30,597 nt of DNA, taken from the sequence record DRR378314_578. One strand, given 5' to 3'. Both the position numbers and the translations under genes were made by a program. Positions 4,234-21,532 of the stretch are shown piece after piece; the stretch's first letter is position 1, and each line of letters begins with the position of its first letter. Below the pieces are notes generated by a model, which was not told where the DNA came from, did no database searches, and saw nothing but the letters and a program-made list of their open reading frames with translations.

Positions 4234-4959
4234 TCAATCGTTACATTCCCACTTAAAATTGGCCACCCGATCATTGGATGCCGAGGAAAGGTTATAGTGC
4301 CACCATTCTGTTCTGATAGACCAGAATCCATGTGCTTCCATGGTCTCTTTCAACAATTTCCTTTTATCCAATATCTCTTTCGGCAAATCCATGTTATCGT
4401 GATAAGCTCTTTTTCCGAAGTAATCAAAATCAGTTCCCATATCAAGTTCATTCCCACCTAAATCCACCAATGTAATATCTACAGCACCACCTTTGTTATG
4501 GATGGAACCCTTATCGGGATTCGCTACATATTGCGGGTTCGGTACAATCTCCCACATTTTGTATTGGACAGAGTTGGGGCGATAACAATCAAAAAACTTG
4601 ATTCTTACTCCCTGCTCCATAAAATCCTTATTGGCCTCGATTAAAGCCTTTGCCGTTTTTACCCTGGTATAGCACTCAGCACAATCATATACTTTGGCCT
4701 TCAAAAAATTGTTCTCGGTCGCGTAGCGCATGTCATAGGCGAAATCTTCACTAAAATCAGCCAATCGAACAAAAGTGGTATCCGCCAAGCCTTCAAATGT
4801 TTTCAAAGCAGGTTTCACTTCTTGTCCTATTGTGTCTTTAGGAACTGAATCCAGAATTATTTTGGTTTCAGCTTGAACTGCATGACTTTTATCCGTTTTA
4901 GGTTTTTGTCGACAACTTGTAATCAAAAGAAGCCCTAAAAGAAAGATTGAATATTTCAT
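4234..4959 (-). CDS. ddpX: D-alanyl-D-alanine dipeptidase (M15D, VanX/DdpX family), predicted lipoprotein
   Basis: DCYRP, zinc motif SIHNKGGAVD (SxHxxGxAxD), LDMGTDFD, EWWHY. Lipobox LITSC. Confidence 0.88.
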   Translation of the reverse strand: MKYSIFLLGLLLITSCRQKPKTDKSHAVQAETKIILDSVPKDTIGQEVKPALKTFEGLADTTFVRLADFSEDFAYDMRYATENNFLKAKVYDCAECYTRVKTAKALIEANKDFMEQGVRIKFFDCYRPNSVQYKMWEIVPNPQYVANPDKGSIHNKGGAVDITLVDLGGNELDMGTDFDYFGKRAYHDNMDLPKEILDKRKLLKETMEAHGFWSIRTEWWHYNLSSASNDRVANFKWECND

Positions 4960-4964
4960 TTGTC

Positions 4965-5684
4965 TTAATTCATTCGTTTTTTATTGGCAAACCACGTGTA
5001 TAAAGAGTCTGTCGTGTAGGCCCTTCCCCATGCATTATGACCAACACCCTGGTATCTGGTGTAACGGACATCGCGTCCCATTTCACGTAGCTTTTCGACC
5101 ATTTTATCGGATTCCTCCACATCAATCACATCATCTCGGTCGCCATGGAAAACCCAGATGGGCATATCCTTGTCTATCCAATGTGCATAAGGCAAGGGTG
5201 TCATTCCACAGACCACGGCCATGGCTGCAAACTTATCCGGATATTGCGTAGCCAACTCCCAAGAGGCACTACCTCCCCTACTCAAACCTGTCAAGTAAAT
5301 TCTATTTTTGTCCACTCTATTGGCATCGACTACGGAATCCAACAATTTAACAACAGCATCCGTGTTCCACCATTTTTTGGCATGGGAATTTTGAGGAGCC
5401 AATATTAAAAAGGGGAATTGTTTGCCTTCGACCAGCATTTTGGGCGGTCCTGTATCCTTGATTTCCTCGACATCCCTTCCGGACTCCCCACCTCCATGCA
5501 GAAAGAGCAATAGTCCAAAATCATCTTCGGAATCAAAATAATCCTCTGGATAATAGAGGTAATATTTAATATTTTCCCGGGTGACCGTTTCCAACTCATC
5601 CTGCACCAAATGGGATTGTGCGGCACAACCCTGAAGCATCAAAATGGCGGCTGAAAGTATTAGCCTAAAAGGTTTCTTTTGCAT
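4965..5684 (-). CDS. Alpha/beta hydrolase (predicted peptidase / phospholipase-carboxylesterase type), predicted lipoprotein
   Basis: LFLHGGGE, nucleophile GLSRGG, FHGDRD, GHNAW; lipobox LQGC. Start is ATG 5684 or GTG 5693. Confidence 0.8.
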   Translation of the reverse strand: MQKKPFRLILSAAILMLQGCAAQSHLVQDELETVTRENIKYYLYYPEDYFDSEDDFGLLLFLHGGGESGRDVEEIKDTGPPKMLVEGKQFPFLILAPQNSHAKKWWNTDAVVKLLDSVVDANRVDKNRIYLTGLSRGGSASWELATQYPDKFAAMAVVCGMTPLPYAHWIDKDMPIWVFHGDRDDVIDVEESDKMVEKLREMGRDVRYTRYQGVGHNAWGRAYTTDSLYTWFANKKRMN

Positions 5685-5696
5685 GGTGCCCACAAG

Positions 5697-6218: not shown

Positions 6219-6465
6219 GTATTGTCTTTTTTTGTGAAGTACGGTAAAACTCTGCAATAATTAAAGTCATCCCGCTAAATCTATTATTAACGTCAATGGA
6301 TTTCTTAAAAAGATTCGTTGCTTTCTTAAAATTTTACAAGAATTTGTCCATCATTTAACCAAACCATATCGCTAAATTTTAAATTAAAAAAATAACAGTT
6401 ACCTTCACACAACAAGATTATTGAAAGCGCAAACATTGCGTTTTTCTGCTAAAAACCAACCTTAC

Positions 6466-7344
6466 ATGTTGCCCAAAGGAAACTTTCCTGAAAAAGTCTA
6501 TTTAAATGGTAAAATAGTATCTGCTGAAGACGCCAAAATATCGGTTTTTGACCGCGGATTTCTGTTCGGGGATGGTATTTACGAAGTAATGGTGCAGTTG
6601 GAAAATGGTCTTTTCTATAAAAAAGCACACCTAGATAGACTACAAGACAATCTGAATAAAATTGGAATCCAATACAACGTCAAGGAAATCGATGATAATT
6701 TGGAAGTACTGCTTAAAGCTTCCAATTTGACGGACCAGTCTTGTTTGATTTACATACAAGTAACCCGCGGGGTGGCTCCAAGAAAGCACTCGTACCCCAA
6801 AGGTGTTCCTCCAAGCGTGATGATGTATGCCCTACCCTACAGTCTCCCGCACATAAATCCTAAAAACATGAAGGCCATTTTGGAACCTGATTTTAGATGG
6901 CATCGGTGCGATATTAAATCCATTTCATTGTTGGGCAATATCATGACCAACGAATCGGCGATGAACGCAAATACCAATGAAGCTGCTTTGGTGAGAGATG
7001 GTATCATATCGGAAGGTTCGCACACCAATATCTTTTTTGTGAAAGATGGCACTGTTCTCACACATCCGGCCAATGAACATATTTTGAACGGCATTACAAG
7101 AAAGATTGTGCTAAAACTTTGTAGTGACCTTGATATACCTATAAACGAGAAACCCATTGCTGAAAACGAAATTGAACATATGGACGAGGCCTTTTTTACA
7201 GGCACAACCACTCAAGTGGCTTCTATAGCCCAACTGGGTTCCCGTACCTTTTATAAGAATGATGAAATTGGCAAAGTCACTCGAAAACTGCAAGAAGCGT
7301 TTGCACAACTCAGAGAAATAAACACGGCCGATATTACTTTATAA
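6466..7344 (+). CDS. dat: D-amino-acid aminotransferase (PLP fold type IV)
   Basis: DRGFLFGDGIYEV, QVTRGVAPRKHSYP (RxH carboxylate trap of D-amino-acid transaminases), catalytic Lys in RCDIKSISLL, EGSHTNIF, ILNGITR. Start is ATG 6466 or TTG 6421. Confidence 0.88.
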   Translation: MLPKGNFPEKVYLNGKIVSAEDAKISVFDRGFLFGDGIYEVMVQLENGLFYKKAHLDRLQDNLNKIGIQYNVKEIDDNLEVLLKASNLTDQSCLIYIQVTRGVAPRKHSYPKGVPPSVMMYALPYSLPHINPKNMKAILEPDFRWHRCDIKSISLLGNIMTNESAMNANTNEAALVRDGIISEGSHTNIFFVKDGTVLTHPANEHILNGITRKIVLKLCSDLDIPINEKPIAENEIEHMDEAFFTGTTTQVASIAQLGSRTFYKNDEIGKVTRKLQEAFAQLREINTADITL

Positions 7345-7358
7345 ATAACCACTTAATT

Positions 7359-8948
7359 ATGACCAAAACGAATTCCAACACGCTTTTTAAAACACTATTG
7401 GGAGTATGCCTGCTATGGGTTTTCTCTTGTGGCAACCAAGATACCTATGACGTCTTGATTTTAAACGGCAACGTCTACAATGGCAAAGGTGGAGACCCAA
7501 TAGTTACGGACATTGCCATCAAAGACTCCATGATTGTTGCTTTGGGAGAATTCGACAACGCCAAAGCAAATAAAATAATTGATGCCTCTGGATTGGCTGT
7601 TTCACCTGGTTTTATTGATATGCACACCCATATTGAGCCTATCATGGAGCTAAACTCTTGCGAGAGCCATGTTCGGCAAGGGGTTACCACATCATTGGGC
7701 GGGCCCGATGGCAGTTCACCCTATCCCCTCAAACCTTATATGGACAGTCTCCAAAATAAAGGTATTGGAATGAATGTAGCTTATCTAGTTGGGCATAATA
7801 CTATTAGAAGAAATATCATGGGGCTTGAAAATAGAGCACCAACAGCAGAAGAGCTCAAAGCCATGGAAGCTGAAGTGGACAGTGCAATGAAAGATGGTGC
7901 CTTTGGCATCTCAACAGGTTTAAAATATCTACCCGGAGCCTTTTCCAAAGTGGATGAAGTCATTAGTCTTTCCAAAGTAGCTTCAAACTATGGCGGGATT
8001 TATACATCACATCTAAGAGAAGAAGGTCTGGGGCTATTTGATGCCGTTGCCGAAGCCATTCAAATTTCCGAAGAAGCCGATATACCTGTCGTGTTGACTC
8101 ACCATAAAGCCATTGGAAAACCTATGTGGGGAAAAAGTGCGCGAACCCTGGCCATGGTGGATTCTGCTAGGGCCAAAGGACTTGACATTAAAATGGACCA
8201 ATATCCCTATGCAGCGAGTTATACAGGGATTTCGGTTTTAATCCCTAGTTGGGCAAGAGCTGGCGGACAAGAAGCCTTTGAGGAACGCGTTGCAGACCCC
8301 GTATTGAGAGACAGTATAAAAAATGGCATTGTTTTCAATATCCTTAATGATCGGGGAGGTTCTGATTTGGACAGGGTGCAATTTGCGAAAGTGGAATGGC
8401 AGCCGGAACTGGAAGGAAAAACATTGAAATACTGGTGCGAACAAAACGACTTGGAACCATCGGTGGAAAATGGTGCCGATATGGTCATTAAAGCGCAATT
8501 GAACGGTGGCGCCTCTTGTGTTTTCCACGCCATGGCCGAAGAAGATGTAGAACGCATCATGAAACATCCCTTTACCATGATAGGTTCAGACGGTAGATTG
8601 GTAGAACCCGGTATGGGTCACCCGCACCCTCGGTGGTATGGAACCTTCCCAAGGGTGCTTGGCCGTTATGTTCGGGAGAAAAACACCTTGGAACTAAGCG
8701 AGGCTATTCAAAAAATGACCTATTTACCAGCGCAAAGTCTTAACTTATCCGACCGCGGTTTAATTAAAGAAGGATTAAGGGCAGATATTACCATCTTTAA
8801 TCCAGAAACTGTTATTGACAAAGCCACTTTTGAAAAACCACATCAATATTCCGAAGGTATCGAATTTGTAATCGTGAACGGAGGCATGGCAGTTGACAAC
8901 GGTGAATTCAAGGATGTAAAATCAGGAATAGTATTAAGAAAACAATAG
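7359..8948 (+). CDS. N-acyl-D-amino-acid deacylase (D-aminoacylase, amidohydrolase superfamily), predicted lipoprotein
   Basis: PGFIDMHTH, QGVTT, GAFGISTGLKY, YTSHLREE, LTHHK, DQYPY, IGSDG, HPRWYGTFPRVLGRYVRE. Lipobox VFSC. Confidence 0.88.
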   Translation: MTKTNSNTLFKTLLGVCLLWVFSCGNQDTYDVLILNGNVYNGKGGDPIVTDIAIKDSMIVALGEFDNAKANKIIDASGLAVSPGFIDMHTHIEPIMELNSCESHVRQGVTTSLGGPDGSSPYPLKPYMDSLQNKGIGMNVAYLVGHNTIRRNIMGLENRAPTAEELKAMEAEVDSAMKDGAFGISTGLKYLPGAFSKVDEVISLSKVASNYGGIYTSHLREEGLGLFDAVAEAIQISEEADIPVVLTHHKAIGKPMWGKSARTLAMVDSARAKGLDIKMDQYPYAASYTGISVLIPSWARAGGQEAFEERVADPVLRDSIKNGIVFNILNDRGGSDLDRVQFAKVEWQPELEGKTLKYWCEQNDLEPSVENGADMVIKAQLNGGASCVFHAMAEEDVERIMKHPFTMIGSDGRLVEPGMGHPHPRWYGTFPRVLGRYVREKNTLELSEAIQKMTYLPAQSLNLSDRGLIKEGLRADITIFNPETVIDKATFEKPHQYSEGIEFVIVNGGMAVDNGEFKDVKSGIVLRKQ

Positions 8949-8957
8949 AACAATACC

Positions 8958-10262
8958 ATGAAAATGAAACATATTACACTAAGCATTTTGATAATTTCCG
9001 GCCTCTTCACCAAAGCAGTTTTGGCCCAAGAGAATATTGAAATTGATAAAAAATATACCAAAGAAGTCGAGCGCTTGGTCAAGAAGAAACAGGTCAAGGA
9101 AGCCTTTGGCCATATCAAAGCTCAAATGGACCAAACCACGGAGGACCTCATTACATTAACCGAAATATTGGCCCCTCCTTTCATGGAAGATGAAAGAGGT
9201 AAGGTATTTGCCAAAATGTTAGAAGATGCTGGCGTGGATAGTCTTTGGACAGACCAAGTCGGGAATGTAATCGGGTTGAGAAAGGGAACCTCTGGCGAAT
9301 CGGGCTATGTAGGTGTGGATGCCCATTTGGATGTCGTTTTCCCCGAAGGAACCAATGTAACTGTAAAAAAAGTGGGAGATACTTTAAAAGCTCCAGGTAT
9401 CGGTGATGACACCCGAGGGCTTGCCATGTTAATCAGTATGCTCAAGGCTATGAACAAAGCAGATATTAAAACTGAGAAAGACTTATTAATTGTGGGCACA
9501 GTGGGCGAAGAAGGTTTGGGCGACCTGCGCGGTATGAAATATATGTTCAACGAATCTGGATTGGATATCGAATCTTGGATTGCCATTGACGGAGGCAGTC
9601 TGGGGAGAATCAGCAATGCCGGATTGGGATCCAAACGCTATAAATTGATAGTTAAAGGCCAAGGCGGCCATTCCTGGGGTGCTTTTGGATTGGCCAATCC
9701 ACATCATGCCTTGGGAAAAGCCATAGACATCTTTTCTGAAGCGGCATGGGATTATACCTCTGGAAACACTCCAAAAACAAGCTTTAATGTCGGTAGAATT
9801 GGAGGTGGAACTTCGGTTAACTCTATTCCATTCGAATCTTGGATGGAAGTGGATATGCGTGCCATCGATCCAAAAAATCTTGACGAAATCGAAATCATTT
9901 TCAAAGAATCCGTGGAAAAAGCCATTTCTGAGTACAATGCCAGTGGTGTACGTGGGGAGGTAACCTACGAACTCATTAAAATTGGGGATAGGCCATCAGG
10001 AGAATTACCTGCTTCCCTCCCCTTGATCCAGAGAACTATGGCAGCTACCAAACTTTTTGGTGAGACACCGGAATTAGGACGAGGGTCAACCAACATCAAC
10101 ATACCTGTTTCCAAAGGAATACCAGCGGTATGTATCGGTCGTGGCGGTCAAGGTGGCGGAGCGCATTCTTTGCACGAATGGTATCTGAACGATGAAGAAA
10201 GTGATGAATCCATTCAATTGGCCTTGTTGATTGCATTGTCACAAGCAGGTCTAGCCAAATAA
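8958..10262 (+). CDS. Exported M20/M25/M40 family metallopeptidase/amidohydrolase
   Basis: Signal peptide ending AVLA-Q. Metal and catalytic motifs DAHLDVVF, PGIGDD, GEEGLGDL, AIDG, GGHSW, GGTSVNSIP and AHSLHE. Confidence 0.87.
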   Translation: MKMKHITLSILIISGLFTKAVLAQENIEIDKKYTKEVERLVKKKQVKEAFGHIKAQMDQTTEDLITLTEILAPPFMEDERGKVFAKMLEDAGVDSLWTDQVGNVIGLRKGTSGESGYVGVDAHLDVVFPEGTNVTVKKVGDTLKAPGIGDDTRGLAMLISMLKAMNKADIKTEKDLLIVGTVGEEGLGDLRGMKYMFNESGLDIESWIAIDGGSLGRISNAGLGSKRYKLIVKGQGGHSWGAFGLANPHHALGKAIDIFSEAAWDYTSGNTPKTSFNVGRIGGGTSVNSIPFESWMEVDMRAIDPKNLDEIEIIFKESVEKAISEYNASGVRGEVTYELIKIGDRPSGELPASLPLIQRTMAATKLFGETPELGRGSTNINIPVSKGIPAVCIGRGGQGGGAHSLHEWYLNDEESDESIQLALLIALSQAGLAK

Positions 10263-10269
10263 GGGAATC

Positions 10270-11892
10270 ATGAAGTTGCTCCCAAAACTACTTTTAGGGC
10301 TGGCCCTTGTTATTTGCACTTCGGTAAGCGCTCAACTAAGTGAAGAGCAATTGGCCAACATAGATAGTTTGTTCTTGCAATGGAACAAGCCCAATCATCC
10401 CGGTGGAGCCATTGCCATAATGCAAGGCAATGATTTGGTTTTTTCCAAAGCGTACGGTTTGGCCAGTATGGAATATTTAGTCCCAAACACTATCGGGACT
10501 AGATTCAATGTAGCTTCCGTATCCAAGCAATTCAGTGCATTGGGCATTGTAAAGCTGCACTTGGCAGGTAAACTTTCCATAGATGAAACGGTAGACAACT
10601 ATATTGATGGTCTTGCGACTTTTGGGAGTGAGATTACCATCAGGCATATACTTCATCACACGAGTGGATTACGAAGTCTTCATGCCCTTTTTGGATTAGC
10701 TGGTTGGCGCGGTGATGATGCAAGGACCAATGCAGACCTGGATAGAATCATTGCTAAGCAAAGTGAACTCAACTTTGAACCTGGTTCGGAATATATGTAC
10801 TGCAACACGGGCTACATGTTCTTGGCCAACATCATTGAAGAAGTCACGGGCATATCCTTTGTGGATTATATGAAAGAAGAAGTTTTCATTCCTCTAGGGA
10901 TGAACGACACCTATGTTGAGCCTGATTACGACGGCATTGTTCCAAACAACGCGACTTCGTACAACCAAACATCGGATGGCTTTGTCCGGTCTGTGGAATA
11001 TTGGGGCTATGTCGGGTCTGGAAACATGCACACCACAACAGATGACCTGCTCAAATATTTGAAAAATTATTATGATCCATTACCTGGGTGGAAAGCTGCA
11101 TTCGATACCATGCAGACCCTTGACCCACTCAATGATGGTAGCTTTAATAAATATGCCTTTGGGGTTAATGTTGATAAGCTGTTTGGTAAAAAACGAGTAA
11201 GCCATGGCGGTTCCATTGGTGGCTTTAGGGCCAATGTTGCTGTTTTTCCAAACGAAAAGACCAGCATTGCCATTATTACTAACTTTTCAAGTTCAGGAGC
11301 TGGAAGAAAATCCAATCAAATTGCAGAAATCCTTTTTGAAGAGACTACATCAAACAAAGATTTGAAAGTGGCAAAGGTTTCCAAGAAGAAGATGGATTCC
11401 TATACAGGTATGTATTGGGATGATGAAACCTATTCCCAACGGATGTTAACCACTGGCGGAGATACGCTATACATCGGTAGAAATCCTTTTTTGCCTGTGC
11501 AGGATGATGAGTTTGTTGCCGTTCAATCTGGAAATGACACTAGAATCCAGTTTGAAAACGGAACCATGACCATTTATCCTGAAAGTGGGAAGCCCATGGT
11601 ATTTTCAAAATTCGAGGAAGAAGAATTGACCAAAGCCTTGGCCCAGGAATATATTGGCTCTTATTTTAGCCCCGAAATTGAAACGGCTTACTCCATTCAT
11701 TATGAAGAGGGTGAGTTCTACGCCCATCATATTCGGCATGGAAAAATACCATTGAAGCTAAAAAAGAAAGATCTTCTGGAGGGAAAACACCCTTTGTCAT
11801 ACATAAAATTCAAAAGAGAAAATGGAAAAACCAAAGGGATATGGATATCCAACGGCAGGGTCCGTAACCTTTGGTTTATCAAAACTGAATAA
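10270..11892 (+). CDS. Exported serine hydrolase, beta-lactamase/S12 fold, D-aminopeptidase-like with C-terminal extension
   Basis: Signal peptide ending SVSA-Q. SxxK in ASVSKQF, ILHHTSGL, YCN, HGG triad. About 180 aa of C-terminal beta-rich domains (YTGMYW..., YIGSYFSPEIET). Confidence 0.82.
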   Translation: MKLLPKLLLGLALVICTSVSAQLSEEQLANIDSLFLQWNKPNHPGGAIAIMQGNDLVFSKAYGLASMEYLVPNTIGTRFNVASVSKQFSALGIVKLHLAGKLSIDETVDNYIDGLATFGSEITIRHILHHTSGLRSLHALFGLAGWRGDDARTNADLDRIIAKQSELNFEPGSEYMYCNTGYMFLANIIEEVTGISFVDYMKEEVFIPLGMNDTYVEPDYDGIVPNNATSYNQTSDGFVRSVEYWGYVGSGNMHTTTDDLLKYLKNYYDPLPGWKAAFDTMQTLDPLNDGSFNKYAFGVNVDKLFGKKRVSHGGSIGGFRANVAVFPNEKTSIAIITNFSSSGAGRKSNQIAEILFEETTSNKDLKVAKVSKKKMDSYTGMYWDDETYSQRMLTTGGDTLYIGRNPFLPVQDDEFVAVQSGNDTRIQFENGTMTIYPESGKPMVFSKFEEEELTKALAQEYIGSYFSPEIETAYSIHYEEGEFYAHHIRHGKIPLKLKKKDLLEGKHPLSYIKFKRENGKTKGIWISNGRVRNLWFIKTE

Positions 11893-11907
11893 CAAAAACC
11901 GACCAAT

Positions 11908-12966
11908 ATGAGAGCAATTTTTATCTTTTTACTGTTTTGCACCCTAAGCTTGGGAGCACAAACATTCCCAGATAGAGTCTGGCATTCAGCAACGGAAGAA
12001 GAAGCACAGCCATGGCAGAACGATAAATCCCAAGCTTTTAGGGAATATTTGATCGACAGTACGAAAATTACAGGATTGATGATTGTGCATAAGGGAAAGG
12101 TGGTGTTCGGTTTTGGTGACTTGGAAGAACTGAGTTACGTAGCTTCTTGCCGAAAAAGTGTGTTGTCGATGTTGTACGGTCAATATGTGGAGAATGGTAC
12201 TATCGATTTGAGCAAAACCATCAAAGAATTGGGGATTACCGATGTGGAAGGCATTCTCCCCATAGAAGAAAAGGCTACGGTCAAAGACATTATTTCTGCT
12301 AGATCTGGAGTCTACCATCCGGAAGGATACCCTGGAGGTATGCAGGAATATGCGCCTGAACGAGGCTCGGTGGAACCAGGCTCCCATTGGTTGTACAGTA
12401 ATTGGGATTTTAATGTTGCGGGCTACATATTTGAACAGGAAACTGGCACAAATATCTACGACGAAGTAGAACGCCAATTGGCCAATCCATTACATATGCA
12501 GGACTGGGACCGCTCCGTTCAACACAAACAGGGGAACACTTCCATTTCCAAATATTTAGCCTATCCCATGTGGTTTTCTACAAGAGATATGGCCCGTTTG
12601 GGATTATTGATGCTAAACAAAGGTAAATGGAAAGATACACAAGTAATAAGTAATGCTTGGGTGGATGAAATGCTCAAAACAAGAACCAGCCATGAAGAGT
12701 TAAACCAAAATGTTCCCGTATTTCAAGGTAGCGGTGTTAATTATGGGTATGGCTATATGTGGTGGTTATGGCAAAATGTTGATGACAAACGTTTTGAAGG
12801 GGCTTATTCCGCCAAGGGAGCCATGGGGCAAAACATTACCGTATACCCTGCTATTGAAACAGTTTTGGCCTTTAAGACCAAAGCCGCATATCGAAGAGCC
12901 AATGCATCCCAGATCAGGATCAATGTTGCCAAAAAGGCTGCTGAAATCTTCGATATGCAGCAATAA
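11908..12966 (+). CDS. Exported serine hydrolase, beta-lactamase class C / NylB (6-aminohexanoate-dimer hydrolase)-like
   Basis: Signal peptide ending SLGA-Q. SxxK in ASCRKS, YSNWDFN, STRDMARLGLL, YGYMWW, AKGAMGQ. Confidence 0.82.
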   Translation: MRAIFIFLLFCTLSLGAQTFPDRVWHSATEEEAQPWQNDKSQAFREYLIDSTKITGLMIVHKGKVVFGFGDLEELSYVASCRKSVLSMLYGQYVENGTIDLSKTIKELGITDVEGILPIEEKATVKDIISARSGVYHPEGYPGGMQEYAPERGSVEPGSHWLYSNWDFNVAGYIFEQETGTNIYDEVERQLANPLHMQDWDRSVQHKQGNTSISKYLAYPMWFSTRDMARLGLLMLNKGKWKDTQVISNAWVDEMLKTRTSHEELNQNVPVFQGSGVNYGYGYMWWLWQNVDDKRFEGAYSAKGAMGQNITVYPAIETVLAFKTKAAYRRANASQIRINVAKKAAEIFDMQQ

Positions 12967-12986: not shown

Positions 12987-15900
12987 TTAATTGGTTTTGG
13001 TGAATACCAAGACCTTACCCCTATTCTGAGTTACCACAATATAAGGGTTACCGCCATTGGCCCTTTCCACTTGTACCATATCTTTTGCATCTCCGGTGAC
13101 CTTAAATCCGCTTTCCTCTGCATTTTTGAATGTAAATCCGCCATTGTTATCCCCGAGTAGAACGCCACCATTAAATGCGTCATATCTTCCGATAAAGGCT
13201 TCATTGCCGAAGTCGTTTCCAATCATCAACACATCAGTAGCGGTATTACCGGCCGCTTGGGTGGTAATCATACATTTTATGGGTGCTAATTGTGTTTGCC
13301 ATGGAAGTTGGCCCATCTTGAACTGTCCGTTTCCATCATTCTCAAAATAGGTGGTTTGATCGTGATTGGCCATTAATTCATCGGCATTTTCCAGTTCTTC
13401 GGGGGTAAAAAGACCACTTTTAGTGGTAGTGGCATACTCTCTAAAGTAATTAAACTTTTTACGGAACATAGGGCTTTGCCCCATAAGGTCTCCCCAAAAG
13501 CTGACCGGGTAGGGCTTAAAGGTGGAATCTTCAAAATCACTTTTAAAATAAGCAAACAATACCGGGTCAATTGCTCCGTTGTTGTCAAAATCCTTGGCCA
13601 ACATAGTAACGGGTCTTTCCGGTGAAGGATTGTACAGGTTGTTCTTCCCCAAATTTCCAGCAATTAGATCCACATCGCCATCGCCATCAAAATCTTTCGC
13701 GAGAACGCATTCCCACCAACCGGATAATTGCTGCATACCTGTTTGGTCCAACTGCTGAAAGGAATCTTTCTTGTTCATAAAAATGGTAACGGGCATAAAC
13801 TCGCCGACCAAAACAAGGTCCTTCAAATTATCCTGATCCAAATCGGCCCATATGGCATCGGTGATCATTCCCGGGTTTCGCAACGCTTTGCTATACATAT
13901 CGGTCACATCCACCAGTGTGCCGTTTTCGTTTTTCAACAAATAGCAATCATCTGGTTTGGGATATTGGGAAAACGGGGTGCGGCCACCAACGAAAAGATC
14001 CACAAAACCGTCACCATCAAAGTCTTCTGCTGTCACAACTGATCCACTTGAGTTTATGCTTGGCAACTCATCCATTGCCCTCACGAATTTTCCGTTGCCC
14101 TGATTGATCATCAGGTAATCTTGATAGTAGGGCGAATCCAAATCGAATTCATTACTGCCTGCAACCATATAGATATCCAGGTCCCCGTCATTTTCCAAAT
14201 CAAAAAGTGAGATACTGGTCTCTTCCCGCATTTTATTGTCTTCATCATCGAACAAGGGAGTACCGGTAAATGAACCTTTCGCGTCTTGCATAAAGATCAT
14301 TGGAGAATGACCAGAAGAGCTTCCTATGATAAAATCCTCAAATCCATCACCGTTTAAATCCCCTTTTGCAATGCGGGGACCATTTTGGGTCAGTTTGTGG
14401 GGCAAGGTAGGTTGCACATAAAAATCGGCCTTATCGGTTTCCTCGTGGACATAATTAACGCCAACCTCCTTTGATATTTCCTGATATAGGGGGTTGGATT
14501 GTTTTGGTGCCAACGGAAATGCCAATTGTTTACCATTTAAGGCTGATGCATCACCATGATTGATTTTTAATGTTTGATTCGTTGGTACATCCGTTAACTT
14601 TTGGAATTTCCCGTCCGGCCATACTATTTCGAGGGATGCAATTGATTTTTTTGGTCCCAAACCAAAATGGGCCATTCCCTCCACCGTAGATAAATAACCC
14701 CTGTTCAACTGATGTTCGTAATATTGAAAGGTACCGTCCTTAAACCGTATGGCCACCTTGGTGCCCAAAGCCGCCTGATTGTTTGTTGGCCCTTTTAAGT
14801 CCAGTTTGATAAAATTCCTGTCTTTTTGGTTCTCAACGTCCAGATTATTCTTAAAGACGAATGCCTCGTCGTTAATGTTGTTCACCACATAATCCAAATC
14901 TCCATCACCGTCCAAATCGGCAAAAGCAGCTCCGTTGGAAAAAGATGGGATGCTCAGCCCCCATTCCTCACCAACATCCTTGAACTGGCCGTTGCCTTCA
15001 TTTCGGTAGGCGTAATTTGGTATTTTCACCACTGGAATAGAGTCCAATATTTGAGATGGGGTAAGATATTTTTGAACATTAAAGTTGAATTCACCAAAAT
15101 CGAGGTCGGTAATATCCCTTGGAAAACCATTGGTGATCAAAATATCCCTGCGACCATCATTATCTGCGTCCACAAAAAGTGGTGACCAGCTCCAATCGGT
15201 TTTGGCTATTCCGGCCATAAGACCGATTTCACTGTACGGCATATCGGGACCTTGGCCCATTTGAAGCATATTACGCATATATTGATAATCGTACCCATAC
15301 TTTTCATTCATATAATAATCATTGTACTTGGTTACTTTGATGGTGGTTTTTAGCCTGTAGTTGGTTTCCCCGAGCATGTCCAAGGTAAGAATATCAAGGT
15401 AGCCATCGTTATTAAAGTCCGCTATATCGGAACCCATGGAAAATTTACTTTGATGCTTTACAAAGTCACTGATCTTATCGGTAAATGTCCCATCCCCGTT
15501 ATTGATATACATGATATCGTTGCTCAAGTAATCATTGCTCACATAAATATCGGGCCAACCATCGTAATCCAAATCGGAAATGGCCACGCCAAGGCCATAC
15601 CCCTCAATGGTAATACCCGCTTCTATGGTTACATCGGTAAAGGTATTGTCTCCATTATTTCGGTATAAACGGTCATTGCTCTTGGATGATCCATCCGTAA
15701 TTTTTTCCCTATAATTTGCAGGTAGAATATGAATGTCCACATTGTTGAGCACGTAGAGATCCAAGAGGCCATCTTTGTTATAATCTATAAAGGCGGCATT
15801 CATGCTGTTACCGGTATCGGCAACGCCATATTCTTTGGCCATCTCTTTAAAAACAGGGACACCGTCATCATCCACGCCTTGGTTTATATATAACATATTG

Positions 15901-16325
15901 GCCTTTTCTTCAGGGCTTTCGTACATAGCGGCACATATGTAGATATCCAAAAGTGAATCGTTGTTTATATCGATTACCGCTACACCAGTCTTCCATTTAT
16001 CCGTTGCTTCCACACCGGATGCTTTGGTAACATCCTTAAATTTAAAATCACCTTGATTTAGATATAGTTTATTGGTTACCTGATTCCCCGTGAAGAAAAG
16101 ATCGGGTTTATCATCGTTGTTAAAATCCCCAACGGCGACTCCTCCCCCGTTAAAAATATACTCGCTGGTAAGAATGTTGAAACTGTCGGTCTCAACGATT
16201 TTATTGTTGAAGGTAATACCGGAATGATCGGATGAAACCTTGGTGAAGAGCGTGTCCTCCTTTTTCTTGGAACAAGAAACCACCAGTAGTGAAGCTAGTG
16301 CAATTAAAATATACCTTTTAGTCAC
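12987..16325 (-). CDS. FG-GAP/VCBS repeat lipoprotein with central ASPIC/UnbV domain (CRTAC1-like)
   Basis: GTG start, lipobox VVSC. About 13 DxDxDGxxD-type repeats (e.g. GDFNNDDKPDL, ADFNNDGYLDI, ADLDGDGDLDY, GDLNGDGFEDF, KDFDGDGDVDL). ASPIC/UnbV-like segment RGYLS...AHFGLG...IVWPDG lies between the two repeat clusters. Confidence 0.88.
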   Translation of the reverse strand: MTKRYILIALASLLVVSCSKKKEDTLFTKVSSDHSGITFNNKIVETDSFNILTSEYIFNGGGVAVGDFNNDDKPDLFFTGNQVTNKLYLNQGDFKFKDVTKASGVEATDKWKTGVAVIDINNDSLLDIYICAAMYESPEEKANMLYINQGVDDDGVPVFKEMAKEYGVADTGNSMNAAFIDYNKDGLLDLYVLNNVDIHILPANYREKITDGSSKSNDRLYRNNGDNTFTDVTIEAGITIEGYGLGVAISDLDYDGWPDIYVSNDYLSNDIMYINNGDGTFTDKISDFVKHQSKFSMGSDIADFNNDGYLDILTLDMLGETNYRLKTTIKVTKYNDYYMNEKYGYDYQYMRNMLQMGQGPDMPYSEIGLMAGIAKTDWSWSPLFVDADNDGRRDILITNGFPRDITDLDFGEFNFNVQKYLTPSQILDSIPVVKIPNYAYRNEGNGQFKDVGEEWGLSIPSFSNGAAFADLDGDGDLDYVVNNINDEAFVFKNNLDVENQKDRNFIKLDLKGPTNNQAALGTKVAIRFKDGTFQYYEHQLNRGYLSTVEGMAHFGLGPKKSIASLEIVWPDGKFQKLTDVPTNQTLKINHGDASALNGKQLAFPLAPKQSNPLYQEISKEVGVNYVHEETDKADFYVQPTLPHKLTQNGPRIAKGDLNGDGFEDFIIGSSSGHSPMIFMQDAKGSFTGTPLFDDEDNKMREETSISLFDLENDGDLDIYMVAGSNEFDLDSPYYQDYLMINQGNGKFVRAMDELPSINSSGSVVTAEDFDGDGFVDLFVGGRTPFSQYPKPDDCYLLKNENGTLVDVTDMYSKALRNPGMITDAIWADLDQDNLKDLVLVGEFMPVTIFMNKKDSFQQLDQTGMQQLSGWWECVLAKDFDGDGDVDLIAGNLGKNNLYNPSPERPVTMLAKDFDNNGAIDPVLFAYFKSDFEDSTFKPYPVSFWGDLMGQSPMFRKKFNYFREYATTTKSGLFTPEELENADELMANHDQTTYFENDGNGQFKMGQLPWQTQLAPIKCMITTQAAGNTATDVLMIGNDFGNEAFIGRYDAFNGGVLLGDNNGGFTFKNAEESGFKVTGDAKDMVQVERANGGNPYIVVTQNRGKVLVFTKTN

Positions 16326-16549
16326 AGTGCTGAAGTTTTTTTATGGGTTAGCCAAAATTATTTGATTAGGTGCAATTGGTTGTAAATTGTAAGACCACCG
16401 TTTGTGCTCGGGAAATTAAGTCATTTTTAAAACTGACGCACGGTGTCACATATTAAATTTACAAATTCGAATACTGTTGTGGAACGAATTACGATTAATG
16501 TTCGATTAAGAACGATTAATTTTTAATTAATAGGAAGTATCCATAATTA

Positions 16550-16583
16550 AAATAGGTTGCCAAAATGAATTGACAACCTATTT
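16550..16583 (-). terminator. Intrinsic terminator downstream of susD
   Basis: Inverted repeat AAATAGGTTGCCAA / TTGACAACCTATTT (14 bp). Its single mismatch is a G-U pair on the minus-strand RNA. It has a 6-nt loop, runs into a U-rich tail on the minus strand and lies about 40 nt after the susD stop. Confidence 0.8.
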
Positions 16584-16623
16584 ACTTGAATTAAATTAAA
16601 CTAACTCAGACTACTCATTATTA

Positions 16624-18327
16624 TTAGTACCCTGGATTCTGTGTCAACACTCCACCGCTCTGGTCGATTGCGTTCACAGGAATCGGGAATAAATCATGTC
16701 TTGGTTCATAGGACCTAAATTTGGTTCCATAACTAGCTTGATCAAAATCATCTGCTTCATTCTGGATATAGGTATTGATGGTTTGCTGAGCATTGCCCCA
16801 TCTTCTCAAATCGAACAATCTATGTCCTTCCATACCAAATTCCAAACGACGCTCAAAACGGATAGCTTGTCGTGCAAAATCCTGACTTGCAAAAGAAGCA
16901 TAAGGCTCAATTTGATAGTTGGCAGCATCTCCAGTTCCATCCACAGTTTGAACATAGTTCATATTTTTGGCCCTGTTTCGTACACGATTTACATATTCCA
17001 ATGCCAAAGGTAAATTTGGACTGGATTGTTCAACAGCAGCTTCAGCAGCCATCAACAATACATCTGCAAAACGCATTACGTTATAGTTGATACCGGACCA
17101 GTCCGATCCCCAACCACCTGTACCGCGTTGGGCATCCACCTCGTCCGCTTGATAAAAATTCTTTTTAGGCAAATAAGGTCCTGAAATATCACCAAAGGTT
17201 GCTCTAATCCACTCTTTTCCTGGGTTTAGACCAAAACCATTATAATCAATACCTCTTCGACCAATGGTATAATCAATACGTGGATCCAATGGTCCTGTAT
17301 GAGGGGTAAAAGGTTCATCACTATTGATTCCATAATCATTGGTTACATCAGTTGCAGCGTAGGAATCCAATAATGGCAATCCGGAACCGTCTGTCTGATA
17401 AGCATTGGCCAAATCTTGTGTTGGCTGATAAAACCCGCAGCAAGTACCCAATGGACCACCCCCTGGGAAGTTCAACGTACCTGTACCATTACCATTAAAA
17501 GAGCGTCCATCATCAGCAGCGAACTGAATGGCAAACATAGATTCAGGACCGTTTTCACCAGCAAGGTTAAAGTTGTCCACGAATTGCTCATTTAAAGAAT
17601 ATGGTCCATTATTGATCACATCGTTGAGCAATGGCAAGGCTTGGTCATATTTTCCTTGGTACAAATAAACTTTGCCCAAAAAGGCTTTTGCCACCCAAGC
17701 ATTGGCTCTACCTACGATAATATCGTCGCCCAGCGCATCAGCAGCAGCTTGAAAATCAGCTTCAATCTCTGCCCATATTGGACCTGGGTTTGGTTGATTG
17801 AACTCTGTATTCACTAAATTCTCCACAGAAAGAAAGGGTGGATTACCATAATGTTTCTGAAGCTCAAAATTGTAATAACCTCTAAGGAATAATGCTTCTC
17901 CTTCTTGTTGGGTAAAGTCCCCTTCCTCAATTTGACTGATCAGGTCCAATACGGCATTACAGCGATTTACACCAGCATAAAGTCCGCTCCATCTTCCCAG
18001 GAACCAACTGTTACCAGTTTGCCAGTCCAAGGTTTCTATCTGGAATAGTTCCGTGTTATCTCCATCGGTACTTCCCCTGTGGGCATCATCCGATACCACA
18101 TCCGTCCACCAGTTGTCTCCGCCACGAGAAACAGCTTCTCCCTGCGCATTAATACGTTCTCCGTCCATAGCGGAATAAGCCGCGGTCAACTTTAGGTCAA
18201 CGCCCAAAGCATTTTGAAGCGCTGCATCCGAGAGCGCACCAGTGGCCGGCTTTTCCGTGAAATCTTCACTACAGGCCCATAGCAATAGACCTGCCAGCAT
18301 TGTTGTAAATAATAACTTCTTTTTCAT
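16624..18327 (-). CDS. susD: RagB/SusD family outer-membrane nutrient-binding lipoprotein
   Basis: Lipobox LWAC. SusD motifs GEALFLRGYYNF, AKAFLGKVYL, MRFADVLLMAAEA, ERRLEFGMEGHRLFDLRRWG, terminal QNPGY. Lies 4 nt downstream of susC. Confidence 0.95.
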   Translation of the reverse strand: MKKKLLFTTMLAGLLLWACSEDFTEKPATGALSDAALQNALGVDLKLTAAYSAMDGERINAQGEAVSRGGDNWWTDVVSDDAHRGSTDGDNTELFQIETLDWQTGNSWFLGRWSGLYAGVNRCNAVLDLISQIEEGDFTQQEGEALFLRGYYNFELQKHYGNPPFLSVENLVNTEFNQPNPGPIWAEIEADFQAAADALGDDIIVGRANAWVAKAFLGKVYLYQGKYDQALPLLNDVINNGPYSLNEQFVDNFNLAGENGPESMFAIQFAADDGRSFNGNGTGTLNFPGGGPLGTCCGFYQPTQDLANAYQTDGSGLPLLDSYAATDVTNDYGINSDEPFTPHTGPLDPRIDYTIGRRGIDYNGFGLNPGKEWIRATFGDISGPYLPKKNFYQADEVDAQRGTGGWGSDWSGINYNVMRFADVLLMAAEAAVEQSSPNLPLALEYVNRVRNRAKNMNYVQTVDGTGDAANYQIEPYASFASQDFARQAIRFERRLEFGMEGHRLFDLRRWGNAQQTINTYIQNEADDFDQASYGTKFRSYEPRHDLFPIPVNAIDQSGGVLTQNPGY

Positions 18328-18331
18328 TTTT

Positions 18332-21300
18332 TTAAAATTTTAGATTAACTCCGAAAGAATAAATTGCAGCTAAAGGATAGTTGTTATCCGCAACACCAAT
18401 GGTCAAGTTGTCAATGGCACCACCTTCAAATCTAGGTTGTAGCTCAGGGTCAACTCCATCATAACCTGTTATGGTGAACAAGTTGGTACCTTGCAGGTAG
18501 AAGCGAACACTATTCATTCCTAAATAACTGGAAACTTGCTCATTAAAAGTATAACCAATTTGAAGGTTTTTCAATCTCATATAAGATCCATCTTCCACAA
18601 AGAAGGAGTTTGCATTACCTTCATTGTTGGATATACTCTGGCTCAACGCCGGCAATTCGGCATCTAGGTTATCTGGAGTCCAAGAATCCAAAACCCTTAC
18701 ACTTCTGTTTGCATTGAAGAATGTTGGGAAGTCAGTATAAACTTTATCGTTATTGAATATTTCGTTCCCTTGCGACCCTTGGAAAAACGCAGACATATCA
18801 AAACCTTTATAGGCAGCTGTCAAGTTAATACCATAAGTGAAATCTGGGTGAGGCGATCCGATGAAAGTTCTATCGTCATCATTGATCACACCGTCATCGT
18901 TCAAATCAGCATATCTGAACCTTCCAACACCATCGGCAGGAGTTGCAAACCCTTGGTCTGCAGCTGCCGTAACTTCTGCTTCCGAAGCAAAAATACCGTC
19001 AACTACTCTACCGTAGAATGATGAAAGCGGTTGCCCCTCTTGTGTTCTTGTAACAGTACCCGTGGTTCTAAACCCTCCGAAACCTGTTTGGAAGGCACTG
19101 ATCAAATCCACCACTTCGTTTTTGTAATGGGAGACGTTAAGGTCAATACCATAGCTAAAGCCAGAGTTCGTTTGATCTCTATAGCTTAAAGTAGCATCCA
19201 CACCTGTGTTCTCAATGGAACCAAGATTCACGAACGGTGGAGCTGCATCAATAGCTGTTGAACTGAACAATTGTTCATCCTGGTTGATCAAATCCTTTGT
19301 CTTGATTTTAAAATATTCTGCAGAAACATTCAATTTGTTGTCAAAGAAGCCAAGTTCAACACCGAAGTTGGTGGTTTCACTGGTTTCCCATCTCAAATTA
19401 GGGTTACCCGCAGCAGACAATAATGCACCTTGTGATGGGCCTCCGTTACCTGTGTAAACATAATTTGCATATTGCTCGCTCAATACAGAAATATTGATGG
19501 TTGGGTTGTTCACCGGAAGTGTCTGGTTACCCAATTGTCCCCAAGAACCTTTCAACTTCAATCGGCTCACGAAAGAGTCTGTTGGCCAAAAGGATTCGTT
19601 GCTCACTACCCAACCAGCACTGAAAGATGGGAAGGTATCACTCTTATTGTCTCCCAAAAATCGAGAGGATTCATCACGACGTACGGTAGCAGTCAACAAG
19701 TAACGACCATCATAGTCATAATTTACCGTTCCGAACAAAGAGAACAAAGAATTTGCATTGTCATAGGCGTAAGCCACGTTTGGTGCACCACCACCATTGC
19801 TCAACAAATAATAGTCAGGTGTTTCGAAAAAATAGTCGTTTCTAGTAATTTCCTTTCCTTTTGCCTGATTATCCAAAGCCTCAATACCAATTAGAGCATT
19901 AATCTTGTGATCTCCGAAAGACTTGTTATAGTTTAAGGTGTTTGTCCATACCCACTCGTAGTTGTCTTGATCGGCCTCTCTCAATGTATTTGTGGCAATA
20001 GGCTCAGATGATTCTGGAATCAACGCCCTAAAACGTCTGTCGTTGTAAGCTCTAATGGAACCACCGAAGGATGTTTTGAACTGCAATCCATCCATAATGT
20101 CCAATGTAGCATAAATATCACCGAATACCCTGAGTGTCTTGGCATAGTCATCTTTTTGACGAGTAGCTTCCGCCACAGGGTTGTTAGGGTTGGATAGTCC
20201 TGTATCGTTACTGTAGTTACCACCAAAGTTCCCATCAGTATCATAAACTGGCACCAAAGGAGACATTCTTTGTGCAAAATTGAACCATGACTGCCCACCA
20301 GCTCTTCTATCGAAAGAAATGTTGGCGTGTTGCCCGATACGAATTCTATCACCGATTTTAAACTCTGAGTTCAATCGTACCGTCCCTCTTTTAAATCCTG
20401 TATGGATTTGAACACCCTGACGGTTTAAGTAGTTAGCAGAGAAGAGAAATCTTGATTTTTCATTACCATTTTCCAAAGTAATGGAAGCGTTTTGCGTAAT
20501 GGCACTTCTGTAGATTTCATCCACCCAATCGGTACCACCTGGTCTAACATTCATAGTTACAGGAACACCTTGAATAGTGGAAGGAACAACCGGACTTGCA
20601 CCGTCACCATATTGTGGGTGCGAAGGCGTTCCACCATCATTCAGGATACTTTGCCAAAGCATTTCTCCATGTTGCTGTGGGTTTAGCATATCTGGCTTAT
20701 TCGTTACTACGGAGAATCCTGTAAGCAAATCAACCGAAACTTTTGCGGTGTTAAGGTTATAACCACCTCCTTTAGTGGTTATAATGACAACACCATTGGA
20801 TGCCCTTGCACCATAAATAGCGGCAGCACCATCTTTAAGTACGTTAAATTGCTCGATATCCGCTGGGTTAATTGAGTTTAAGATACCTGGGTCATCGGTC
20901 TGAACGCCATCAATAATATAGAGAGGGTCGTTACTATTACCTGTACCAAAACCCCTAATACGAACTACTGGAGCTGAACCAGGAGCACCGTTATTGGTAA
21001 CTGTAACACCTGCCACCCTACCTTGTAAGGCTTCTGCGGCGTTTACAACAGGAGTTTTTGTGGCTTCCTCAACATCAACTGTTGCCACAGATCCTGTTAA
21101 TTCCCCTCTTGTTTGTGTACCATAACCTGTTACCACCACCTCATCCAAGGCTGCGGCATCTTCTTCCATGGTTACATCAATTGTAGTATTACCGTCCACT
21201 GGAATTTCAATGGTCTTAAATCCTACGTAAGAAAAAATCAAAGTAGCATCCGAAGCTGCCGTAATGGAGTAATTTCCATCAAAATCCGTCTGCGTACCGT

Positions 21301-21532
21301 TGGTAGTACCCTTTACAATAACATTTGTTCCGGGTAGTGGAGTTCCAAAGTTATCCACAACGGTTCCCGTAATGGTAATTTGGTAAGGAGGTGAAGTAGC
21401 TTCATCCAAGTCTGGGGCCGCTGCCATTGCAGATCCACCCACCAGCATCATTGTCATTGACAAAAAGAGAGCCTGAAAAGCTTTAAAGCAATCAGACAAT
21501 CTTGTCAAAACTTTAAATCTGTTTTGATTCAT
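18332..21532 (-). CDS. susC: SusC/RagA family TonB-dependent transporter
   Basis: N-terminal extension (GTQTDFDGNYSI), LDEVVVTGYG, plug motifs PLYIIDG and VLKDGAAAIYGARASNGVVIITTK, NPNLRWET, C-terminal Phe (GVNLKF). Confidence 0.96.
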   Translation of the reverse strand: MNQNRFKVLTRLSDCFKAFQALFLSMTMMLVGGSAMAAAPDLDEATSPPYQITITGTVVDNFGTPLPGTNVIVKGTTNGTQTDFDGNYSITAASDATLIFSYVGFKTIEIPVDGNTTIDVTMEEDAAALDEVVVTGYGTQTRGELTGSVATVDVEEATKTPVVNAAEALQGRVAGVTVTNNGAPGSAPVVRIRGFGTGNSNDPLYIIDGVQTDDPGILNSINPADIEQFNVLKDGAAAIYGARASNGVVIITTKGGGYNLNTAKVSVDLLTGFSVVTNKPDMLNPQQHGEMLWQSILNDGGTPSHPQYGDGASPVVPSTIQGVPVTMNVRPGGTDWVDEIYRSAITQNASITLENGNEKSRFLFSANYLNRQGVQIHTGFKRGTVRLNSEFKIGDRIRIGQHANISFDRRAGGQSWFNFAQRMSPLVPVYDTDGNFGGNYSNDTGLSNPNNPVAEATRQKDDYAKTLRVFGDIYATLDIMDGLQFKTSFGGSIRAYNDRRFRALIPESSEPIATNTLREADQDNYEWVWTNTLNYNKSFGDHKINALIGIEALDNQAKGKEITRNDYFFETPDYYLLSNGGGAPNVAYAYDNANSLFSLFGTVNYDYDGRYLLTATVRRDESSRFLGDNKSDTFPSFSAGWVVSNESFWPTDSFVSRLKLKGSWGQLGNQTLPVNNPTINISVLSEQYANYVYTGNGGPSQGALLSAAGNPNLRWETSETTNFGVELGFFDNKLNVSAEYFKIKTKDLINQDEQLFSSTAIDAAPPFVNLGSIENTGVDATLSYRDQTNSGFSYGIDLNVSHYKNEVVDLISAFQTGFGGFRTTGTVTRTQEGQPLSSFYGRVVDGIFASEAEVTAAADQGFATPADGVGRFRYADLNDDGVINDDDRTFIGSPHPDFTYGINLTAAYKGFDMSAFFQGSQGNEIFNNDKVYTDFPTFFNANRSVRVLDSWTPDNLDAELPALSQSISNNEGNANSFFVEDGSYMRLKNLQIGYTFNEQVSSYLGMNSVRFYLQGTNLFTITGYDGVDPELQPRFEGGAIDNLTIGVADNNYPLAAIYSFGVNLKF

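Follow-up and report, generated by a model that had tools for sequence, protein, structure and literature searches.

In Pyrococcus abyssi, the gene of the CubicO-type S12 D-peptidase Pab87 lies beside genes for an aminotransferase, a D-aminoacylase and a dipeptide transporter, and in the available extracts of their 2009 report the authors proposed a role in processing environmental D-peptides from bacterial cell-wall debris (PMC2651629). The same extracts present Pab87 as a cytoplasmic archaeal octamer with a lipocalin C-terminal domain, accompanied by an ATP-binding cassette (ABC) dipeptide importer, and the accessible part of another report notes that in a marine gammaproteobacterium a D-aminoacylase has a TonB-dependent transporter next to it (PMC3400609). 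Here we describe a run of five genes, g1 to g5, at positions 6466-12966 of sequence record DRR378314_578, a stretch of 30,597 nt that was analysed as a whole and is called the window below. It combines an S12 enzyme related to Pab87 (g4) with a pyridoxal phosphate (PLP) aminotransferase (g1) and a D-aminoacylase-like protein (g2), as the archaeal neighbourhood does together with its peptide-uptake genes. Unlike in the Pab87 set, the hydrolases of the window are predicted to be exported, g4 is of the D-aminopeptidase (DAP) type with two beta domains, the aminotransferase is a fold-IV enzyme resembling D-amino-acid transaminases (Dat), the most constant partner is an M20 protein (g3) related to PahZ2, a poly(aspartic acid) hydrolase, and the set lacks a transporter gene. 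A first-pass annotation of the window had known of no description of this gene set as a unit; this needs correction, as a comparable set with the same interpretation was published for Pab87, so far as the extracts of that paper go (PMC2651629). Literature searches on Flavobacteria returned no description of this gene set. We propose, with slightly better than even confidence, that the five genes form an accessory operon with which D-amino acids are salvaged in the periplasm from peptides and N-acyl derivatives.

Near-identical g3 proteins carry the names Muricauda, Flagellimonas or Allomuricauda, which places the window in these marine Flavobacteriaceae. The genes of the run are:

6466..7344, plus strand: g1, fold-IV PLP transaminase, D-amino-acid transaminase-like (Dat), no signal peptide; Pfam Aminotran_4
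7359..8948, plus strand: g2, lipoprotein, D-aminoacylase-like amidohydrolase with Asp replacing a Cys metal ligand; Pfam Amidohydro_3
8958..10262, plus strand: g3, exported M20/M28-type metallopeptidase, PahZ2-like; Pfam Peptidase_M20 and M20_dimer
10270..11892, plus strand: g4, exported three-domain S12 serine hydrolase, DAP-like; Pfam Beta-lactamase
11908..12966, plus strand: g5, exported small S12-family serine hydrolase, putative; Pfam Beta-lactamase

The open reading frame coordinates bear out what the first-pass annotation had reported, namely five co-oriented genes separated by gaps of 14, 9, 7 and 15 nt, and its family assignments of all five proteins agree with Pfam (Aminotran_4, 5e-39 for g1; Amidohydro_3, 1e-23 for g2; the Beta-lactamase family, 6e-54 for g4 and 4e-23 for g5). 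The motifs that it had named were also found: GDGIYE, R-K-H and RCDIK in g1, SVSK, YCN and HGG in g4, and S-C-R-K and Y-S-N in g5. The frame of g1 opens with an ATG at 6466, and an alternative longer frame opens with a TTG at 6421. Export signals were predicted with a hydrophobicity heuristic and by eye, and the localisation obtained was again the one proposed earlier, a cytoplasmic transaminase and four exported hydrolases. The N-terminus of g1 is not hydrophobic, those of g3, g4 and g5 have an n-region, an h-region and a site resembling A-x-A followed by Q, as expected of predicted signal peptides, and that of g2 carries a predicted lipobox-like ...FSC before G, with the Cys in lipobox context in 41 of 41 g2 orthologues (40 matched by a regular expression and 1 identified by eye).

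In base composition, the operon does not differ from the flanking DNA. Gene order and tight packing are repeated in 20 further loci from other species of the genus, whose Dat proteins are 66-99% identical to that of the window, and the five-gene arrangement is therefore more than chance. Within the operon, the promoter motif TAnnTTTG does not occur on the plus strand, terminator-like sites are not in excess (4 found against 7.9 expected from shuffles), and a scan for sigma-70 promoters and terminators gave counts not above those of shuffled sequences. A search for sequencing runs that contain this DNA gave 11 entries from 5 studies, none of them recorded as RNA and four marked as RNA by a guess only.

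To describe the variation of the run within its genus (Flagellimonas/Muricauda), 63 loci, 18 of them anchored on g3 and 45 on Dat, were mapped with the window proteins by tblastn. Dat was detected in 63 of 101 genus genomes and is thus accessory, and g3 was detected in 18 of 25; among the 25 genomes searched with both queries, 17 had Dat and g3, 3 Dat only, 1 g3 only and 4 neither, counts that come from related and hence not independent genomes. The gene combinations at the mapped loci were:

g1-g2-g3-g4-g5: 20 loci, and one more cut by a contig end
g1-g3: 16 loci
g1-g2-g3-g4: 8 loci
g1-g3-g2: 5 loci (a divergent clade)
g1 alone: 4 loci
g1-g2: 3 loci
other combinations, one locus each: 6 loci

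Dat heads the cassette in 61 of the 63 loci, the exceptions being L014 and the contig-cut L006, and every hydrolase combination comes after it. Both Dat and the M20 gene are present in 53 of the 63 loci, and the commonest reduced form, found in 16, retains these two as its sole cassette genes. On a quickly built maximum-likelihood tree of 80 Dat rows, from which the g3 loci from outside the genus and Dat matches with fewer than 240 aligned residues (L143) had been dropped and in which L006 and L014 have no Dat to contribute, the five-gene form is scattered across the main genus clade (52 rows; Shimodaira-Hasegawa-like approximate likelihood ratio test, 97). The fewest state changes that account for the present pattern (61 rows) are 7 for g2, 6 for g3, 10 for g4 and 10 for g5. 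Decay is also visible in place, as a 57-residue remnant of g2 between g1 and g3 (L126), a g3 in two pieces (L123) and a g4 in two pieces (L104). The five genes are a modular, repeatedly trimmed cassette in one genus, not a conserved unit.

In several species (L105, L108-L110, L121 and L169), Dat or g3 is immediately preceded, on its own strand, by an inserted block of four genes encoding CAP-domain, CHU_C/type IX secretion system (T9SS)-signal, PorP/SprF and OmpA-family proteins.

Two elements were recognised in the leader region (6374-6465) in front of Dat:

6374..6409, plus strand: promoter-like or operator-like box (…AATTTTAA…AAATAACAGTTACCTTCACA), conserved upstream of Dat, putative in function
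6423..6445, plus strand: terminator-like leader stem-loop with an A-tract and a T-tract, from single-sequence folds; possibly an attenuator or 5' stabiliser

Across 30 aligned leaders the core of the box, TTACCTTCAC, varies little or not at all, and the form …AAATA(A/T)C..TTACCTTCAC… occurs in most loci of the main clade. In each of the five genomes searched, the exact box occurs once, at the operon only, and a regulon search in these genomes that allowed two mismatches gave no more matches than a reversed-pattern control. No exact copy of the Bacteroidetes -7 motif TAnnTTTG lies upstream of g1. The leader of the window folds with a minimum free energy of -9.1 kcal/mol (z -2.5), and for the 30 leaders the mean z is -1.7, with values below -1 in 22, all against mononucleotide shuffles. 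The stem sequences vary among loci while the hairpin persists, at least 10 loci being without it; RNAalifold found no consensus pairs on a MAFFT alignment of the leaders, and no Rfam family was found in the window at gathering thresholds. A conserved AAAACCAACC tract follows the stem-loop and precedes the ATG of Dat. Judged from these sequences, the box is perhaps a single locus-specific promoter or operator and the stem-loop an attenuator.

The product of g1 is most like D-amino-acid transaminases. Its best matches in the PDB are D-Ala/D-amino-acid aminotransferases (9pxs, 1e-58; 1daa, 1e-53), a branched-chain aminotransferase reaching only 6e-38, and GDGIYE, R-x-H and RCDIK all align with the D-Ala aminotransferase 9pxs. 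We take the roles of these motifs, an active-site Tyr in GDGIYE, a carboxylate trap in R-x-H and the catalytic Lys in RCDIK, to be those known from studies of the Bacillus D-amino-acid aminotransferase. With the Bacillus-type enzyme g1 shares fold IV and the conserved catalytic and carboxylate-binding motifs; unlike it, g1 heads an operon of exported hydrolases and scores just under the equivalog cut-off of TIGR01121, its top-scoring model (ilvE reaches 151 bits). D-specific transamination is thus only predicted for g1. D-Ala catabolism based on a D-Ala aminotransferase reportedly occurs in marine Pseudoalteromonas, as a citation in PMC12363236 has it, and a catabolic role of Dat in a marine heterotroph is plausible. 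Glutamate racemase (MurI) scored above its cut-off in all five genomes tested, four of which lack Dat, and since the racemase is present with or without Dat, the latter is dispensable for cell-wall D-Glu.

The M20 protein g3 aligns end to end with PahZ2 (PDB 7ljh; E 4.8e-88, 299 bits), its residues 38-431 matching residues 28-423 of a chain of 425, and the runner-up match reaches only 6e-07. PahZ2 is its sole strong solved relative. The protein is specifically PahZ2-like, that is, a homologue of an oligo-aspartate exo-hydrolase, which upholds the earlier reading as a signal-peptide M20 hydrolase and makes it more specific. Residues H123, D125, D150, E184, E185 and H403 show no variation among 16 diverse homologues of 36-55% identity, and from what is known of M20/M28 enzymes we take them to be the di-metal ligands (His, Asp, bridging Asp, Glu-Glu, His). 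The PahZ2-like family is large: at E <= 1e-3 it counts 4424 library proteins, and at E <= 1e-30 still 696. In the excerpts available, PahZ2 of Sphingomonas sp. KT-1 is described as a periplasmic exo-enzyme that breaks oligo-Asp down to Asp by cleaving either alpha or beta bonds (PMC13017698), and the polymer degraded with its help as one in which D- and L-Asp are equally represented and some 70% of the bonds are beta (PMC4456602). The substrate known for PahZ2 is a synthetic polymer. A periplasmic location, predicted here, is common to g3 and PahZ2; unlike in KT-1, no PahZ1 partner was recognised and the partner is Dat. No PahZ1 homologue adjoins the operon (a genome-wide search was not made), and the alpha/beta hydrolase at 4965-5693, considered as a candidate PahZ1, was rejected since it matches generic esterases, with no poly(Asp) hydrolase among its 34 PDB matches.

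Maribacter proteins are 79-82% identical to g3. Long PahZ2-like forms also exist (P0195, of 811 aa, P0122, P0127 and P0135): in one an N-terminal S12 beta-lactamase-family domain, 24% identical to g4, is fused to the PahZ2-like domain, another carries a ChaN-like domain, and two are extended at the N-terminus by about 300 residues that match no Pfam family.

The best sequence matches of g4 in the PDB are Pab87 (2qmi, 2e-38) and Ochrobactrum DAP (1ei5, 4e-34), and its SVSK, YCN and HGG motifs are invariant in 11 sequences. An AlphaFold2 (AF2) model of g4 had a mean predicted local distance difference test score (pLDDT) of 76, with residues 370-540 all-beta at pLDDT 80-90. The top Foldseek match of this model is 1ei5, over the full length (533 columns, template modelling scores 0.72/0.75, 23% identity), in agreement with the likeness to Ochrobactrum D-aminopeptidase and its C-terminal beta domains noted in the first-pass annotation; the other fold matches are mostly D-stereospecific S12 enzymes. 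As modelled, g4 resembles DAP over three domains, including the two C-terminal beta domains. The SxxK, YxN and HxG motifs and the three-domain fold are common to g4 and the enzyme of Ochrobactrum anthropi, whereas the identity is low, the score against the DAP model NF009622 (154.4 bits, over residues 42-485) is far under its cut-off of 443, and g4 has a signal peptide. The O. anthropi enzyme is cytoplasmic. For the smaller S12 protein g5, S80-x-x-K83 and Y163-x-N165 are invariant in 7 sequences, PDB matches are weak only (the NylB-like 4gb7, 2e-10), an AF2 model from the 7 sequences (pLDDT 53) was too poor for a fold search, and a protein atlas offered only unnamed Bacteroidota beta-lactamase-family clusters and so no informative relative.

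The lipoprotein g2 matches, over its full length, A. faecalis D-aminoacylase (7e-80), Bordetella N-acyl-D-Glu deacylase (8e-75) and OngB (2e-72) in the PDB. According to the accessible text of PMC12017989, subtype V deacylases have the beta-site ligands Cys/His/His (Cys97, His222 and His252 in PpOngB), which are kept in AfDam and BbDam, further marks of the family are an HxH motif and a catalytic Asp after beta-8, and OngB is a GlcNAc1A deacetylase. In g2, DMHTH (HxH) and MIGSDG (the catalytic Asp) align with AfDam and are kept in 44 of 44 orthologues, both beta-site His residues are retained, and the HHK, PY and PHPR segments align with AfDam and may supply the carboxylate-binding Lys, Tyr and Arg, the residue numbers having been mapped by eye from PpOngB. 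Asp stands at the Cys position (GGPDG in place of TGNCG) in all 44 orthologues, which share the ligand pattern H-x-H / D / H / H / D, as well as in 4 distant homologues that belong to another genus and to Gemmatimonadota. This replacement in all orthologues makes g2 a distinct subfamily and not a canonical D-aminoacylase. What it shares with N-acyl-D-amino-acid deacylases and OngB is full-length homology, HxH, the two His and the catalytic Asp; unlike them, it is a predicted lipoprotein with Asp at the Cys site, and it is roughly equidistant from every characterised member of the family. The earlier description as a lipoprotein D-aminoacylase thus holds for the lipobox and the homology, and fails at the defining Cys ligand.

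The nearest characterised relatives of these proteins, the D-amino-acid transaminases, the D-aminoacylases, DAP/Pab87 and PahZ2, act on D- or beta-linked substrates. We infer the substrates, the stereoselectivity, the co-transcription and the passage of hydrolysis products from the periplasm to Dat, as follows. The operon would probably be transcribed from the one conserved promoter-like box, and the four hydrolases would be sent to the periplasm, with g2 anchored by lipid, where they would set amino acids free from peptides or N-acyl amino acids that are poor substrates of ordinary L-peptidases. The DAP-like g4 may act at the N-terminus of D-peptides or amides, g2 on N-acyl-D-amino acids or C-terminal D-residues, and g3, as an exo-hydrolase, on Asp-rich acidic oligomers that are possibly beta-linked or D. 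D-amino acids so released would be imported by a transporter encoded outside the operon and transaminated by Dat in the cytoplasm to 2-oxo acids. Dat and the PahZ2-like enzyme would make up the core of this route, with the deacylase-like and S12 genes as optional modules. We favour salvage because of the tight packing, the Dat-first order of the cassette, the unique box, the relatives acting on D- or beta-linked substrates and the independent parallels.

Several findings weigh against it. The frequent decay of the cassette (6-10 state changes per gene, and remnants) implies that its benefit is conditional. No transporter or regulator gene is found in the operon of the window, Dat scores 257.0 bits where the equivalog cut-off is 277.45, g2 is without the Cys ligand that defines characterised D-aminoacylases, and PahZ2 cleaves alpha bonds too, as the excerpts of PMC13017698 state. 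A sequence, moreover, does not reveal the stereoselectivity of an enzyme. Outside the genus, 299 other Flavobacteriaceae genera were sampled with one genome each. Dat occurs in 19 of these genera, g3 orthologues in 10 and g4 relatives (E <= 1e-90) in 12, yet Dat and g3 share a single genome (G236, locus L149), the only one of the 299 in which Dat is linked with these hydrolases. Dat was found beside none of the g3 homologues in 75 outside-genus loci from five phyla, and the six closest g4 orthologues outside the genus have none of the other cassette genes adjoining, Dat included. An S12 gene lies within 10 kb of g3 in 6 of these 75 loci and a g2-like gene in 3. With 29 matches to PF00144 (S12) in the 4.1 Mb of the nearest genome, for which the rough expectation is about 13%, an enrichment of S12 genes near g3 was rejected, the observed rate being background. 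The absence of linkage in these loci and genera makes the five-gene unit a lineage-specific assembly and not a widespread pathway, so that the co-occurrence in Bacteroidota that the first-pass annotation had proposed to check stands for Dat and the hydrolases inside the genus and not for the five families beyond it.

Two arrangements differ from that of the window in what surrounds Dat and g3. At L149, in the other genus, SusC, SusD, a dehydrogenase-like gene, Dat, g3, g2 and a second g2-like gene (g2') follow one another on one strand, with an M14 carboxypeptidase gene adjacent, and the whole looks like a peptide utilisation locus. In the divergent clade of the same genus as the window (L136-L142 and L018), a divergent MocR-type regulator gene and then a DAP_DH_C dehydrogenase-like gene precede Dat, g3 and g2, and a SusC/SusD-like_2 pair and an M14 carboxypeptidase gene adjoin them, SusC/SusD being convergent in L136-L142. 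An adjacent SusC/SusD pair co-oriented with the degradative genes does not occur in the window and is seen only at L149. In other Flavobacteriaceae genera, Dat is flanked by an amidase gene at 4 loci, an S58/DmpA-like peptidase gene at 4 and a Tricorn-like S41 protease gene at 3. At L156, L158, L160, L161 and L162, Dat is of 42-46% identity and stands beside an amidase-signature enzyme, an S58 (DmpA/BapA-like) peptidase, or both. At these five loci Dat is paired in a second and different way with hydrolases that act on unusual amides.

The operon might instead serve recycling or remodelling of the cell's own peptidoglycan, the S12 proteins being DD-carboxy/endopeptidases of the AmpH/PBP4B type, g2 and g3 trimming muropeptide stems and Dat interconverting D-Ala and D-Glu. 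Balancing of D-Ala and D-Glu is compatible with the chemistry of Dat, the R61 DD-peptidase is among the fold matches of g4, and the gene of a predicted exported VanX-like M15 dipeptidase adjoins the operon; however, this M15 gene belongs to a cluster kept in 5 of 5 genomes without Dat and is not tied to the operon. The NCBIfam matches of g4 to PBP4B (67 bits) and AmpH (60 bits) are far under their cut-offs, and g4 fits DAP across three domains better than any penicillin-binding protein (PBP). An operon that is accessory and often truncated is moreover unlike a housekeeping wall function, and MurI is present irrespective of Dat; we regard this explanation as unlikely. Still less probable, in our view, is defence against, or processing of, D-containing peptide natural products such as lipopeptides and non-ribosomal antibiotics, with Dat merely mopping up. 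A patchy accessory distribution would suit such an ecological trait, and the fold matches of g4 include the Lip3 DL-peptidase, ClbP, SurE and alkaline D-peptidase, whose substrates are in each case natural products that contain D-residues. The exo-type relatives (DAP, PahZ2 and the deacylases) together with a transaminase nevertheless suggest full breakdown to monomers, the commonest and minimal reduced form, Dat with the M20 gene (16 loci), has no S12 gene, and no biosynthetic or immunity genes lie nearby.

The five proteins may also share no pathway, generic exported esterases, L-peptidases or amidases having come to lie behind a transaminase gene whose product serves another role, such as branched-chain or D-Glu metabolism. 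The abundance of S12 genes in the nearest genome, a g5 without an informative relative, the hydrolases unlinked to Dat outside the genus and a cassette that is readily lost all speak for this. It is hard to reconcile with gaps of 7-15 nt and an order kept down to 66% Dat identity, with one conserved upstream box, with four nearest characterised families that share a D- or beta-amide theme, and with the unusual amidases that Dat adjoins in other genera too, and we think it improbable. If the salvage proposal is false, the locus is an ordinary cluster of exported hydrolases.

A more specific form of the salvage proposal, which we put forward tentatively and consider rather doubtful, joins the observations on Dat and g3. 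Dat and the PahZ2-like M20 enzyme would be the conserved core, and the natural role of the PahZ2 family would be periplasmic exo-hydrolysis of aged or bacterial Asp/Glu-rich oligopeptides with D- or beta-linked residues, from which D-Asp and D-Glu would pass directly to Dat; the S12 and deacylase additions would widen the substrate range, and the promoter box and the hairpin attenuator would provide control. If so, with the Dat-M20 core genomic data give a first hint of what the large PahZ2 family, known only from the breakdown of a synthetic polymer, does in nature.

D-amino acids from bacterial walls and aged proteins make up a sizeable share of the dissolved organic nitrogen of the sea, and one that turns over slowly. 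Our impression from the results of the literature searches, which does not come from a count, is that Proteobacteria and free D-amino acids dominate them. Should salvage be correct, the operon gives marine Flavobacteria a periplasmic route from D-peptides and acyl-amino acids to central metabolism, its natural 5-, 4-, 2- and 0-gene variants in one genus offer a ready comparative experiment, and it supplies candidate D-stereoselective biocatalysts together with a testable natural function for the PahZ2 family.

The genes on either side of the operon lie on the opposite strand. Upstream, 4234-4959 (minus strand) encodes the VanX-like homologue of M15 D-Ala-D-Ala dipeptidases (PDB 1r44, E 3.5e-14) and 4965-5693 (minus strand) the alpha/beta hydrolase; both have lipoprotein-like N-termini and are predicted to be exported. 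The cluster of the M15, alpha/beta-hydrolase and NT5C genes is syntenic across the genus and, since it is kept in 5 of 5 genomes without Dat, does not belong to the variable unit. Downstream, at 12987-21532 (minus strand) and hence convergent to the operon, lie genes for an FG-GAP/ASPIC-UnbV protein (1112 aa, lipoprotein-like), SusD and SusC. The synteny of SusC, SusD and the FG-GAP gene with the Dat locus is kept in many species, even where the cassette is reduced to Dat.

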